A stretch of DNA of 64,000 bases from Gammaproteobacteria bacterium (GTDB taxonomy: Bacteria > Pseudomonadota > Gammaproteobacteria > Eutrophobiales > Eutrophobiaceae), in contig CBDCDS010000003.1 in assembly GCA_965215365.1 (NCBI GenBank), positions 992,001 through 1,056,000 of the forward strand, given 5' to 3'. Both the position numbers and the translations under genes were made by a program. Of the stretch, positions 2,728-7,167 are shown piece by piece (position 1 is the stretch's first letter; every line of letters starts with the position of its first letter). Under the pieces are notes generated by a model. That model did not search any database, was not told the DNA's origin, and was given only the letters and a program-made list of their open reading frames with translations.

Positions 2728-3327
2728 CAAATCCTAAAAATGCCATGGAGGGCATTTTCAGATGGTTCCCATAACAGCTATTTGTCGTCAATCTGTCGGT
2801 GGTTTATGGTATTCTTGTGGGGTTATTTTAACAAGCAAGCTGCAACAGGTTGCAGGGAGATGAAAGACGACTATGCCAACCGTATCATCTGCGGGGACAG
2901 CGAGCAAACACTGAAAGCCCTGCCGGATAATTGTGTCGATCTGGTGTTCACTTCACCACCGTATAACTTTGGACTGGGTTATCAGGAAGGCAACGGTTCT
3001 GCCGATGGTGACGCGACTGACTGGAACTCCTATTTTGCCAAGCTCTTTCAAGTATTTGATGAATGTATCCGAGTGCTGAAATATGGCGGACGCATCATTG
3101 TTAACGTACAACCTTTATTCTCCGATTACATTCCCAGCCATCACATTATCTCTCACTACTTCGTGGAAAAACGGCTGATCTGGAAGGGTGAGATTCTCTG
3201 GGAGAAAAACAACTACAACTGCAAGTACACAGCCTGGGGAAGCTGGAAAAGTCCGTCTTCTCCTTACCTCAAATGTAACTACTCGCCCCCTCCCTCTAAT
3301 TCTACTGAATTTTTTGTCAAGGCGTCC

Positions 3328-3356
3328 TTGACAACATAGCGTCATGGCGTTATGTT
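3328..3356 (+). promoter_or_regulatory. Sigma70-type promoter inside the IS left end, overlapped by two palindromes
   Basis: TTGACA-17 nt-TATGTT; palindromes TTGTCAAGG-cgt-CCTTGACAA and CAACATAGCG..CGTTATGTTG. Confidence 0.6.
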
Positions 3357-3363
3357 GGTCGTC

Positions 3364-4044
3364 ATGGGGAATGCGTACCGAGGGTCGAAAGCCACGACGG
3401 GTCTGTGCCAGCCGCTCATTGCGATGATGCCGCCGCACAGTGTGTACATTGAGACACACTTAGGCGGCGGGGCGATTATGCAGCGCAAGCCGGCGGCGTT
3501 GCGCAACATTGGGATTGATCTTGATGTGCGGGCGTTGGCGGGGTTTACGTGTAGGTATCCGGTGGAGTTGGTGCAGGGGTGTTGTCACCGCTGGTTGGCG
3601 ACTTTTCCGTTTGACGGCACGGAGTTGGTGTACAGCGACCCGCCCTACCTGCACAGCACGCGCAAGTCACGGCACCGTTACCGGTATGACTACGAGGACT
3701 CAGACCATGAGGCGCTGCTGGCGTTACTGCAGGGGCTGCCCTGTGCGGTGATGGTGTCGGGGTATCCTTCGGCCTTGTATGATGAGGTGCTGGCGGGCTG
3801 GCGCAGTGTGTCCTTGCAGGTGATGAATCAGGGCGGGGTGGTGACCGAGCGGGTCTGGTTCAATTTTGTGCCGGACCGGGTGCACTGGGTGCGCTATGCG
3901 GGGCGCAACTTCACGCACCGCCAGCAGGTCAAGCGCAAGGCTGAGAACTGGGGGCGGCGTTATCGTGACTTGCCCCCGGCCGAGCGGCTGGCGGTGCTGG
4001 CGGCGATGATGGCGGTGGAGGCACAGTGCACATGGCCACGGTGA
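3364..4044 (+). CDS. Compact Dam/D12-like DNA adenine methyltransferase (IS passenger)
   Basis: YRGSK (motif X), YIETHLGGGA (motif I), IGIDLD, LVYSDPPY (motif IV), VMVSGY. Confidence 0.85.
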   Translation: MGNAYRGSKATTGLCQPLIAMMPPHSVYIETHLGGGAIMQRKPAALRNIGIDLDVRALAGFTCRYPVELVQGCCHRWLATFPFDGTELVYSDPPYLHSTRKSRHRYRYDYEDSDHEALLALLQGLPCAVMVSGYPSALYDEVLAGWRSVSLQVMNQGGVVTERVWFNFVPDRVHWVRYAGRNFTHRQQVKRKAENWGRRYRDLPPAERLAVLAAMMAVEAQCTWPR

Positions 4045-5549
4045 ACAAGGCCTCATTGCGTGCGGAGTTCGAGGCCATCCGAATGCGTTTTAAGGCGTTG
4101 TGCGCCGACGGCGCGCTGAGTCCCGAAGGGCGTGCGCTGTTCGAGTCGATGTTGCTGCTATTCGAGTTGCTGCTGGCGGTGTTCTTAGAGAAGACCACAC
4201 CGAAGGGGGCGCACAACTCCAGCCTGCCCAGTTCCCGCACCGACCCCGATGACAGTGCGCGCACACGGCCCGGCAAGCAGGGCAAGGGGCCGCAGACCGG
4301 GACGGTGCCCAGCGCGTCCCGGCGCGTGGTGGCTCAGACCCGCACGGTGCCCGTGACCGGCTGCCGGGCCTGCGGGCATGATCTCAAAGGCACCGCCCCC
4401 ACCGGCCATGTGCGACGAGTCAAGGTCGATATAGTCTTCGAGACGACCGAGTTGACCATTGACGCCGAGATAAAAACCTGTCCGCGCTGTGGCACTGAGA
4501 CCCACGGGGCGTTTCCCGATGACATGCCGGGGCCTTTACAATACGGCCCTGGCATCGTGGCTTTCGCCACGCACCTGTTAACGGCCCAAATGCTCTCGCT
4601 CAAACGTACGGCGCAGACACTTCATGCACTGACCGGGCGCGCCGTCGCCGAGGCGACCTTACTGGCCTGGCTCACGCGGGTGCATGAGGCCCTGGCCGGG
4701 TGGGAGCGGGCGGCTATCGCCCGCCTGCTCACAGAGCCCGTGCTGCACGCCGATGAGACCTCCTTGCGCATCGACCGCACACAACACTGGCTGCACAGCA
4801 CCAGTGCCGGGAACCTGGTACTGAAACACTGCCACCGCAAGCGGGGCGGGGACGCCCTCAAGGACATCGGCATCGTCCCCCGCTACGGCGGTGTTCTCGT
4901 GCACGACCGCTGGGCCAGCTACTTCGCCTATGACAACTGCGAGCATGCCCTGTGCGGCAGTCACCTGTTGCGTAACTTGGCCTTTATCGAGGACGCCCAC
5001 GGCCATGCCTGGGCCCAACGTATGAGCCGCCTCCTGCTCAAGACCTGCCGACAGGTGCGCACACATAAAAACAAGGCACTCAGCGAGACCGACTACCAGT
5101 CCCTGCGCACCCGCTACCGGACTATCCTGACACAAGCCAAACGGGAACTCCCCACACCCCCGAAACGGCTCACCGGCCAACGCGGACGGATTGCCCAATG
5201 TGAGGCACAAAACCTCCATGATGCCCTCGTCAAGTACGAAACCGAAGTCCTCCGCTTCGCCCGCGACCCCAACGTGCCGTTCACCAACAACCGCGCCGAA
5301 CGCGATATCCGTATGGCTAAAGTCAAACAAAAAGTCTCCGGCTGCTTCCGAACCACCGCCTACGCCGACACCTACTGCCGCATCTCCAGCTACTTGCAGT
5401 CTATGACCCTGAAGGGCTACAATCCCCTCGCCGCCATCGAGATAGCACTCAAGGGAGACGCCGCCACCATGGTGGAAAAACCGCTCAAAAATAAAACGGT
5501 TAAGAAAAACCAGATCAGAACAAAAGATCAGGGTAAGGGGGGCGAGTAG
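4032..5549 (+). CDS. IS66-family DDE transposase
   Basis: NSSLPSS, CxxC..CxxC zinc finger, LHADETS, VHDRW, CGSHLLR, FTNNRAERDIR..KVKQKVSGCFR. Confidence 0.96.
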   Translation: MATVNKASLRAEFEAIRMRFKALCADGALSPEGRALFESMLLLFELLLAVFLEKTTPKGAHNSSLPSSRTDPDDSARTRPGKQGKGPQTGTVPSASRRVVAQTRTVPVTGCRACGHDLKGTAPTGHVRRVKVDIVFETTELTIDAEIKTCPRCGTETHGAFPDDMPGPLQYGPGIVAFATHLLTAQMLSLKRTAQTLHALTGRAVAEATLLAWLTRVHEALAGWERAAIARLLTEPVLHADETSLRIDRTQHWLHSTSAGNLVLKHCHRKRGGDALKDIGIVPRYGGVLVHDRWASYFAYDNCEHALCGSHLLRNLAFIEDAHGHAWAQRMSRLLLKTCRQVRTHKNKALSETDYQSLRTRYRTILTQAKRELPTPPKRLTGQRGRIAQCEAQNLHDALVKYETEVLRFARDPNVPFTNNRAERDIRMAKVKQKVSGCFRTTAYADTYCRISSYLQSMTLKGYNPLAAIEIALKGDAATMVEKPLKNKTVKKNQIRTKDQGKGGE

Positions 5550-6047
5550 TTACCCTCAAATATACTTGGGAGTTCCTGGAGGTCTTCTGCAAGGGCGATC
5601 TGAAAAAATCGGGCAATGCGCGTGATGCCGACATCAGCCCTGATTCTTTCAAAGAGTGGGTGGTTGCCAAATGGTCCATTGCCCCTGAGCGGCGTATGAA
5701 GGACTTTGATCATCCTGCCATGTTTCCGGAGGAGCTGGCAAGAAGGGTCATGCTGCTGTTCAGTTTCCGGGGCGACACCGTACTGGACCCTTTCGCCGGT
5801 GTAGGCACAACCTGTGTGGCGGCGCAGCACAACCACCGACAGTTTCTTGGCATTGATATTTCGCCCGAGTATTGCGATAAAGCTGAAACAAGATTGATTG
5901 ACCACCAATCATCTCTGGCGTTATACGGAAATCAGGGACTATATCAATTCCCGGCAAGACAAATATGATTACCGCGCGCAAGTTGATAAGCACGTTTTTA
6001 AGGATGGAAAACTGGTAATGGGTAAGGAAAATTGAAACGTTGTCTTG

Positions 6048-6728
6048 TTATTCCGTGATGTCATGGTCGGTTTGTCTGATGAAGGTTTGAACGTCTCTGG
6101 CCTTGCTCAGGCGCCTGATTAATTTGTTTATTTCTTGCATCAGTTCTTCAGGAAGACCGTATTCGATTTCATAGGTAAAATTGTTGATGCTTTTGGCGAG
6201 TTCTTTTGGCCGGTCGTCTTTTGTCATCTTATCTTTCAGGTAGAGCGGGATGGCTTTATTTAATTCCTCCGGGAGTTTTTTGTGTGCAAAGGCGATGTCC
6301 ATATAGTCTCGAATAACCTTTCTTTTTGTAATCGCCGCCAGTTTACTGGCAAGGATATCTATCGGGTGAGCAACCTCTATGCCGTTTTGCGCTGTTATTG
6401 GTGTTTTCACCGGTGCGATGACGTGAAATTCTTCTATGCTGATGAAATTGAATTTTATCTCTCGTTCTTTCCCTTTTACCACTGCATCGACCATCATTCT
6501 GCTTCCTTTGAAGTCTGCTGATTTGAGCCAGGGGATGCTTGATAAGGCCTCTCGTGTAACGGGTCCTGTTCTGAAAAAATCAAAGTCTGTGGATTTTCTG
6601 TGATTTAAGTACAAGGCAAGCGCGGTTCCGCCGTAAAGCCGATAGTCCGGCAAATCGTCGGGTTTCATGGTTTCCCATAAGGACAGCATGTCCTTATCCA
6701 TAAATTGTGTTTTGTCAGGCTTGAGCAT
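6048..6728 (-). CDS. AbiEii/AbiGii-family nucleotidyltransferase toxin
   Basis: LYGGTALALYLNHRKSTDFDFF, DILASKL, RDYMDI motifs; AT-richer DNA. Confidence 0.88.
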   Translation of the reverse strand: MLKPDKTQFMDKDMLSLWETMKPDDLPDYRLYGGTALALYLNHRKSTDFDFFRTGPVTREALSSIPWLKSADFKGSRMMVDAVVKGKEREIKFNFISIEEFHVIAPVKTPITAQNGIEVAHPIDILASKLAAITKRKVIRDYMDIAFAHKKLPEELNKAIPLYLKDKMTKDDRPKELAKSINNFTYEIEYGLPEELMQEINKLIRRLSKARDVQTFIRQTDHDITE

Positions 6729-6729
6729 T

Positions 6730-7167
6730 TTATTTGTACTCGCCTCTGAGTTCTTCCCAGGATTTCTCGTAGGCGTATAACTGGTCTTTCATGTGTAATG
6801 GCTCGAACCATTCCTTGTCTATGTTGACGTGGTCCAGGCCAGCCAGCATTCTGTACAAACGCCAGGAGCGTGTTGATACCTGGCCGGGCCGGCAGGTTTC
6901 TAACATTTCAATCCAGTCTTCTCGAGGGATGGCGTCCCATAAGTAATCCACATCCTCATGTCTGGCATAGTCAATGGCGTGTCGCAGGAACTCGTAGCGG
7001 TTGCGCAGGATGGTCCAGGGATCGCCGTTCCACCACATTGAACTTGCGATGGCGGTTAATTTCGGTGTTGCCGGGAGGGGGTTGTTGACTCGTGGGATGG
7101 GTGTGTTGTGCCAGTCCATCTGCTCCGGGCGAGGGTCATAGCCGAGTGCTTCGATTGAGTGTGGCAT
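6730..7167 (-). CDS. Hypothetical protein, putative antitoxin of the adjacent AbiEii toxin
   Basis: Stop lies 1 nt before the toxin start, same strand and similar composition. Confidence 0.6.
   Translation of the reverse strand: MPHSIEALGYDPRPEQMDWHNTPIPRVNNPLPATPKLTAIASSMWWNGDPWTILRNRYEFLRHAIDYARHEDVDYLWDAIPREDWIEMLETCRPGQVSTRSWRLYRMLAGLDHVNIDKEWFEPLHMKDQLYAYEKSWEELRGEYK

Follow-up and report, generated by a model that had tools for sequence, protein, structure and literature searches.

Why should an insertion sequence carry, ahead of its transposase gene, a gene that resembles a DNA methyltransferase? The question is raised by a 64,000-nucleotide stretch of a Gammaproteobacteria genome (NCBI GenBank assembly GCA_965215365.1, contig CBDCDS010000003.1, forward-strand positions 992,001 to 1,056,000), here called the window, whose own positions serve as coordinates throughout. 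It contains an IS66-family insertion sequence (IS) of 2279 bp (3275-5553), in which a 226-amino-acid (aa) open reading frame (ORF), which we call ORF1 (3364-4044, + strand), stands before the transposase gene. The answer that we favor, with moderate confidence, is that ORF1 and its promoter form a portable promoter-operator-repressor cassette of the Upf31 family that would govern expression of the transposase.

The element is sharply delimited. A perfect 16-bp terminal inverted repeat (TIR), GTAACTACTCGCCCCC, occupies 3275-3290 (+) and 5538-5553 (-), and an 8-bp direct repeat outside it, CCTCAAAT, represents the target-site duplication (3267-3274 and 5554-5561). The ORF list places two genes only between the ends, in overlapping frames. 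The second, running from ATG 4032 to 5549 (+), encodes a 505-aa DDE transposase that matches both PF03050 (DDE_Tnp_IS66, E 2.1e-42) and NF033517 (249 bits, cut-off 180). GTG 4026 is an alternative start, and the alignments of relatives begin at residue 3 of the GTG-started frame; the transposase start overlaps the ORF1 stop by 13 nt. An earlier sequence-only reading of this DNA had described an IS66-type element whose TIRs and 8-bp duplication enclose two overlapping ORFs, and the ends, the duplication and the profile matches bear it out on every one of these points.

The assembly (2.73 Mb in 3 contigs) contains 13 full-length copies with the same ends, at least 99.9% identical; relative to the window copy, each has changes at two positions (279 and 2250) at most, or else lacks a single bp. 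A perfect 8-bp duplication, different in each case, flanks 10 of the 13 and is absent in 3. With 13 occurrences of these 2279 bp, 10 of them bearing a duplication of their own, the arrangement goes beyond chance, and the element is active. Several truncated or interrupted copies exist besides. ORF1 is uninterrupted in each of the 13 full copies, so that the methyltransferase-like gene proves to be a constant part of the full element, a point that the sequence-only reading had left to be checked. Sequencing-run contigs from three studies, under three organism labels, also contain an almost identical element, sharing at least 0.95 of the words sampled; a sample from one of these studies may be the source sample.

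Is the ORF1 product a DNA methyltransferase? We place its start at ATG 3364; the ATG at 3352 is not taken as the start because it falls inside the -10 hexamer of a promoter at 3328-3356, and relatives begin MGNAY. The protein contains motif I (HLGGGA) and a motif IV DPPY (in the context LVYSDPPYL), and its AlphaFold2 (AF2) model (predicted local distance difference test 90.2, predicted template-modelling score 0.85) has a Rossmann methyltransferase fold followed by two basic C-terminal helices (187-205 and 209-226). The best Foldseek match to the model is E. coli Dam (4rtl_A, E 9.3e-7, template-modelling score 0.51). A homodimer prediction scored 0.21 against a mark of 0.42 and is used neither for nor against what follows. 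The only Pfam match of ORF1 is a weak one to PF02086 (18.6 bits, cut-off 22), TIGR00571 gives 22.9 bits against a cut-off of 114.85, and type II methylase models match from motif IV onward (PADLOC PDLC03244, E 6.1e-21; PHROGs phrog_56, E 3.9e-20). In an alignment of 42 family sequences, 38-90% identical to ORF1, the residues G38, D96, P97, P98, H29 and H119 are invariant, and G40 and Y99 are more than 90% conserved. The profile of this alignment, searched against the PDB, finds DpnM (E 1.9e-9) and E. coli Dam (E 3.3e-5) in two pieces. ORF1 thus shares with the alpha-class enzymes Dam and DpnM (PF02086, TIGR00571) the Rossmann fold, motif X/I (Y.GsK ... hLGGGA) and DPPY, in the same order. It differs from them in what lies between the two pieces: DpnM aligns over 17-81 and 169-266, whereas its residues 82-168, the target-recognition domain of about 87 residues, are without a counterpart in ORF1.

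With Upf31.0 of the plasmid pB3, ORF1 shares 45% of residues in an alignment (E 4e-67) that spans 220 of its 226 aa and takes in the C-terminal helices. Judged from these comparisons, ORF1 is a member of the Upf31 family and not a bona fide member of the Dam family, because the target-recognition domain is absent and the curated scores are missed. The sequence-only reading had spoken of a Dam-like DPPY methyltransferase carried by the element; the Dam-like fold, the DPPY motif and the location inside the ends stand, and the description as the element's own DNA methyltransferase is doubtful. This warns against annotating the ORF1 family as 'DNA adenine methylase' and inferring changes in the methylome from that name.

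What Upf31 does has been studied by Elg et al. with the protein of pBP136. Upf31 reportedly produced no GATC methylation, and SMRT sequencing gave no base-modification signal in methylase-free E. coli (10.1101/2024.02.05.579024). According to the same report, a 68-bp promoter, upf31p, fell from 4.76 to 0.09 XylE units with full-length hybrid Upf31, the likely operator consists of inverted 5'-CAGCATCG-3' repeats, and the C-terminal dimerisation domain is required for the phenotype; Upf31 alters plasmid and chromosomal gene expression and is proposed to act through KorB, a plasmid protein (10.1101/2024.02.05.579024). The further suggestion of the sequence-only reading, that the insertion replaces one host methylation activity with another, is therefore unsupported, because the methyltransferase status of ORF1 is itself doubtful, with the Dam thresholds missed, no target-recognition domain, and a relative for which methylation was not detected (10.1101/2024.02.05.579024).

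The region upstream of ORF1 strengthens the parallel. A sigma-70-type promoter at 3328-3356 (+; TTGACA, 17-nt spacer, TATGTT) matches the promoter hexamers at 10 of 12 positions. ATG 3364 follows the -10 hexamer by only 7 nt, so the ORF1 mRNA is probably leaderless. Between the -35 and -10 hexamers lies an operator-like inverted repeat, CAACATAG-N10-TTATGTTG (3332-3357, no strand assigned), which corresponds to the CAGCATCG repeats that upf31p contains; there, too, an 8-bp inverted repeat with 10-bp spacing lies between -35 and -10 (10.1101/2024.02.05.579024). Upstream of pB3 upf31.0 we find the equivalent layout, CAGCATCG-N10-CGATGCTG; the half-site reads CATAG in the element and CATCG in upf31. 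The repeat has the consensus CAnCATAG-N10-CTATGnTG, with 7 of 8 positions complementary in the window and 8 of 8 in pB3 and in L063 and L066 (labels beginning with L denote loci of ORF1 relatives in the searched genomes).

This arrangement is widely kept. The form CTTGACAnCATAG-N10-CTATGgT precedes ORF1 relatives in 66 of 71 distinct upstream regions, in a general layout where 17 nt separate the -35 hexamer from a -10 hexamer of the form TAnnnT, and promoter and repeat accompany ORF1 whatever the type of transposase downstream. Counts for individual columns of the repeat are qualitative only, as the pattern also caught unrelated sites (for example in L024, L025, L028, L034 and L036). In the genome of the window, the extended repeat occurs 16 times, always inside copies of the IS and never outside.

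Other palindromes were seen around these promoters. A perfect 9-bp palindrome, TTGTCAAGG-cgt-CCTTGACAA (3314-3334), overlaps the -35 hexamer and so creates another TTGACA, outward-facing, on the other strand; neither L016 nor other relatives conserve this palindrome. Where relatives have a longer leader, a palindrome of 8-10 bp, different in sequence from one to the next, begins 1-4 nt after the -10 hexamer (L039 3968-3991, L052 3964-3988, L071 479-507 and L061 3960-3990, among others), and RNA folding of these is suggestive only (mean z -0.86, with 5 of 23 below -2). The subgroup to which the window belongs is without such a palindrome after the -10 hexamer and appears to be leaderless.

Taken together, these observations lead us to propose the following scheme. 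The strong sigma-70 promoter at the left end would drive ORF1 and the overlapping transposase gene, and the transposase is probably translationally coupled to ORF1, which the 13-nt overlap of stop and start fits. ORF1 would bind the inverted repeat between -35 and -10 and so repress its own ORF1-transposase operon, keeping transposase output low independently of copy number and host; a brake on transposition built in this way could be moved before any transposase. We infer binding and repression by analogy with the published Upf31 result, and with them the limit on transposition.

Several points weigh against this scheme. The function is transferred from a relative of 45% identity and from a single paper, whose work was done in E. 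coli with over-expression (10.1101/2024.02.05.579024). A pure repressor role leaves the invariant DPPY and the glycines that bind S-adenosylmethionine (SAM) unexplained, and since both are strictly conserved, the alignment suggests that catalysis or binding of SAM or adenine still matters. The negative methylome of Upf31 would also be compatible with activity on rare sites or on special forms of DNA. As for the operator, many copies are complementary at the inner 5 bp only (CATAG/CTATG), and the repeat overlaps the -10 hexamer, so that its conservation is partly conservation of the promoter.

A live rival is that ORF1 is instead an active site-specific adenine methyltransferase that acts on its own promoter or ends, for example on the A in CATAG, so that transposase expression, or the activity of the ends, would be confined to the hemimethylated state that follows replication. 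Control by methylation is the idea of the sequence-only reading; it would make the cassette a host-independent 'private Dam' and can coexist with operator binding, but we consider it doubtful. It draws on the DPPY and motif I glycines that are invariant across 42 diverse family members, on the strong purifying selection acting on ORF1 (described below), on a fold closest to Dam, and on the type II methyltransferase models that match from motif IV onward (PDLC03244 and phrog_56). Promoters do not normally contain an element like the conserved ATAG beside the -35 hexamer, and one copy in the genome, a single case, interrupts a gene of the modification-dependent restriction family GmrSD_N. Against methylation stand the missing target-recognition domain of Dam and the shortfall from both curated Dam thresholds. 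Moreover, Upf31, the only family member tested, showed no detectable methylation either by SMRT sequencing or by GATC-sensitive digestion (10.1101/2024.02.05.579024).

ORF1 relatives are numerous: an exhaustive search returned 6131 representatives of a set clustered at 50% identity with E <= 1e-3 (608 with E <= 1e-30), and a word-based search returned 4566 protein clusters, the best 120 of which are 75-90% identical to ORF1, several of them on many contigs. In a survey of one genome per species, covering 185,579 species, 168 stretches encode an ORF1 relative; the counts of genomic context given here refer to the best 79 loci of these 168 stretches, which come from 32 genomes and, by record titles and tree labels, from three phyla (Pseudomonadota, Chloroflexota and Acidobacteriota). 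Over the 79 loci, ORF1 is 66-90% identical to that of the window, whereas the IS66-type transposases share from 78% to as little as about 33% of residues with the one in the window.

An IS66-type transposase gene on the same strand, starting within 800 nt of ORF1, follows in 64 of the 79 loci; in 4 the contig ends too near to tell, and 11 have something else downstream. Counting all types, a transposase gene follows ORF1 in 73 of the 75 loci with room downstream (the 64 of IS66 type; L024, L026, L027 and L029; L061; and L037-L041), and where the gap was measured it is mostly -41 to +18 nt. Inverted ends that also begin GTAAC were found in the relatives L018, L030 and L075.

Two of the remaining elements are completely bounded. 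In L061, the transposase downstream belongs to the ISKra4 family (NF033572, 345 bits, cut-off 205), and a perfect 16-bp inverted repeat with a 7-bp duplication encloses both ORF1 and this gene; the same ends recur at contig ends in that assembly. This element also has a relic resembling an IS66 left end, GTAACGACTCACC, before the cassette, about 130-150 nt inside its left end, a hint that an IS66-type element was the source of the captured cassette. L024 is bounded by a perfect 16-bp inverted repeat with a 9-bp duplication, between which lie ORF1 and a DDE transposase that is unclassified (its PF01609 match, E 2.2e-4, falls short of the cut-off, and NCBIfam gives no match). The transposases of L026, L027 and L029 are related to that of L024, and the sequence at their left end resembles the L024 inverted end; in all three, the same nested insertion, about 3.3 kb long, interrupts the gene for the transposase. 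In four loci, the cassette is followed by an IS701-type gene (169.2 bits, cut-off 170); these loci lie within L037-L041, and all copies run off their contigs or are interrupted, so that from these copies ORF1 cannot be demonstrated inside IS701-type ends; an IS1634-type gene in L038 is a nested insertion. L065 has ORF1 with no transposase adjacent, and L072, which we assigned to no type, is the last of the 11 other loci.

Seen from the side of the transposases, the cassette is not a fixed companion. We compared 80 metagenomic loci with a transposase related to that of L024 (25-63% identity), 31 of them with at least 750 nt of upstream sequence, and ORF1 is absent from all. A sample of 400 other genomes from the same phylum gave no ORF1 match at E <= 1e-60, and 15 of them have IS66 transposases at E <= 1e-40 (31-54% identical); 10 IS66 loci scanned from this sample contain no ORF1 match (best E 0.29), and in the two that were annotated, host genes lie directly upstream of the transposase. 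The association therefore depends on the cassette and not on the transposase lineage. The sequence-only reading had proposed a methyltransferase-transposase unit in an IS66-type element; the cassettes inside the ISKra4 element (L061) and the unclassified DDE element (L024) show that the gene is not specific to IS66. Its expectation that homologs would be linked to IS66 holds for close relatives, as the 64 of 79 loci attest, and fails for homologs below 60% identity, which are stand-alone genes on plasmids.

These plasmid relatives are found in 190 of 72,556 plasmid records, all at less than 60% identity. The two that we opened stand alone: upf31.0 of the IncP-1 plasmid pB3, beside trbP and upf30.5, and a 'DNA adenine methylase' on a Xanthomonas plasmid. 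They raise the alternative that ORF1 is cargo that benefits its carrier, either as an anti-restriction or anti-defence gene derived from conjugative plasmids or as a regulator of host or plasmid genes, its place ahead of the transposase reflecting promoter sharing only. Since 133 of the 190 records are conjugative plasmids, since Upf31 reportedly alters plasmid and chromosomal gene expression (10.1101/2024.02.05.579024), and since ORF1 has no adjacent transposase in L065, the idea has some appeal. A transposase gene nevertheless follows nearly every close relative, mostly with a gap of a few tens of nucleotides or less where measured, the extended operator is confined in this genome to the 16 sites inside IS copies, and KorB, the proposed partner of Upf31, is a plasmid protein that is no part of these elements. 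We consider a cargo or anti-restriction role less likely and, on balance, improbable.

We built a maximum-likelihood tree from 48 distinct ORF1 proteins and 7 representatives. Support of 100/99 sets the IS-linked clade, in which three divergent representatives nest, apart from four plasmid-type rows. Within this clade the transposase types are intermixed, the tree requiring 19 label changes where the minimum is 6; the ISKra4-associated L061, for instance, is sister to the IS66-associated L069 (support 99/96). The congruence between the two phylogenies that the sequence-only reading had wanted tested is thus lacking where ORF1 is compared with transposase type. Six pairs from within one IS66 lineage, in which the two genes have much the same dS, give a ratio of nonsynonymous to synonymous substitution rates (dN/dS) of 0.10-0.19 for ORF1, whereas the transposase reaches 0.24-0.45 (two rows involving L030 were left out). 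ORF1 is therefore under strong purifying selection, stronger than that on the transposase. Because dS is similar within the lineage and yet the transposase types are intermixed on the ORF1 tree, the two genes have diverged together within the lineage, and the cassette has moved between lineages and families. That ORF1 has no function and was caught between IS66 ends by accident, on a single occasion, as a passenger (insertion sequences with passenger genes being known from the ISfinder literature), is highly improbable and contradicted by the selection and distribution data: its dN/dS lies below that of the transposase, its frame is intact in all full copies, promoter and repeat are kept in nearly all distinct upstream regions, and the cassette accompanies at least three unrelated transposase types in three phyla.

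There is a bolder and rather unlikely version of the repressor cassette. The cassette would be a self-contained 'transposition governor', captured repeatedly by IS66, ISKra4, unclassified DDE and perhaps IS701 elements, in which a functional SAM/adenine pocket flips or methylates operator adenines or senses SAM. Whatever the host, transposase expression would then follow replication or the metabolic state, with no need of host Dam. If true, a governor with a functional pocket would also explain the role of Upf31 on IncP-1 plasmids.

Insertion sequences are usually described as a transposase with or without family-specific helpers; a conserved cassette with a methyltransferase fold that accompanies unrelated transposases, and is more constrained than they are, points to a general, exchangeable module of transposition control. 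Upf31, recently studied and of unclear mechanism, gains a second and much simpler natural context, with one promoter, one operator and one downstream gene, and no Kor network.

How does this element relate to known systems? IS66 elements typically have terminal inverted repeats starting 5'-GTAA. The canonical IS66 accessory genes tnpA and tnpB are absent here, which places the element in the single-transposase branch of IS66, which we take to be the ISBst12-like group; it shares with those elements the PF03050/NF033517 transposase, ends beginning GTAA and an 8-bp duplication. On plasmids, the best relatives of the transposase share 34-36% of its residues (one, from a Geobacillus plasmid, is annotated 'IS66-like element ISGst1 family transposase'), and no transposase more than 36% identical was found in the plasmid records. 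IS66 relatives without ORF1 in the sampled genomes are single-gene elements, to which this one adds the 226-aa Upf31-like gene with its promoter and operator-like repeat. The upf31 genes (upf31.0) of the IncP-1 beta plasmids pBP136, pB3 and R751 resemble ORF1 in full-length identity and in the predicted Dam-like fold. They differ in being stand-alone backbone genes by trbP/upf30.5, whereas ORF1 heads a transposase operon with no Kor system.

Self-encoded repressors or inhibitors of transposition are known from IS1 (InsA), IS911 (OrfA) and Tn5 (Inh), and resemble what we propose for ORF1 in being small upstream products that limit transposase expression. They differ in that ORF1 has a methyltransferase fold and its own promoter and putative operator and is common to unrelated transposase families. 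An extra gene inside the ends is also the mark of the 'transporter IS', and ORF1 likewise moves with the element in all 13 full copies. In IS10, IS50 and IS903, host Dam couples transposase expression to the methylation state of the promoter. The likeness to these three, expression coupled to methylation, applies only if ORF1 methylates, and they depend on host Dam and GATC sites with no methylase-like gene aboard. An IS with a self-encoded regulator was already known; what is unusual here is that the proposed regulator has a methyltransferase fold and is arranged as a promoter-operator-gene cassette common to unrelated transposase families. Literature searches turned up no paper that describes, within IS66, ISKra4 or any other IS, a gene resembling a methylase or Upf31, although an ISfinder entry may exist. 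PMC9296519 only speculates that orphan methylases might control transposons, and its discussion summarises the Dam-regulated elements IS10, IS50 and IS903.

The site of insertion raised a question of its own, since the sequence-only reading had seen the element split a gene for an SPPY beta-class methyltransferase and had left open whether the target was chosen by chance. The split is real: both flanks match PF01555 (N6_N4_Mtase; 2860-3273 and 5555-5965), the 5' part of the host N6/N4 methylase gene (2860-3274, +) over profile positions 1-84 with the motif FTSPPYNFG (E 5.7e-10), and the 3' part (5554-5968, +) over positions 121-220 (E 1.1e-22). In-silico excision of the element with one copy of the duplication yields a single, continuous 313-aa frame across the junction. 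When the targets of the 13 full copies were tabulated, 5 lay inside long frames (313, 440, 563, 594 and 781 aa); the 313-aa frame is the only methylase gene among them, and the other 12 copies lie elsewhere. Because one copy in 13 hits such a gene, its insertion there looks incidental and the choice of target a matter of chance. The 594-aa frame is the one interrupted by the copy at G000:C3:536866-539144 (locus L004, 1501-3779), and its N-terminal part matches GmrSD_N (E 4.3e-30), a family of modification-dependent restriction enzymes; this single case would be notable if ORF1 were an active methylase.

Some copies have been rearranged. Three of them (G000:C1:66951-69229, C3:879837-882115 and C3:1921378-1923656) have a right-hand flank in common, CTTGAAAT followed by identical sequence, and two of the three lack a matching left duplication, which suggests either recombination between copies or a duplicated segment adjoining the IS. 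Two degraded copies were seen at G000:C1:73270-75116 and C3:973530-978586: one has lost the promoter and the 5' end of ORF1 through a 272-bp internal deletion (element positions 59-330), and the other consists of three pieces with foreign insertions between them. In the window, an AbiEii-type nucleotidyltransferase toxin gene (6048-6728, -; PF08843, E 7.5e-14) lies directly downstream of the split methylase gene and is partnered by a 145-aa frame (6730-7167, -) with no Pfam match, which sets the interrupted methylase in a defence or toxin-antitoxin neighbourhood.

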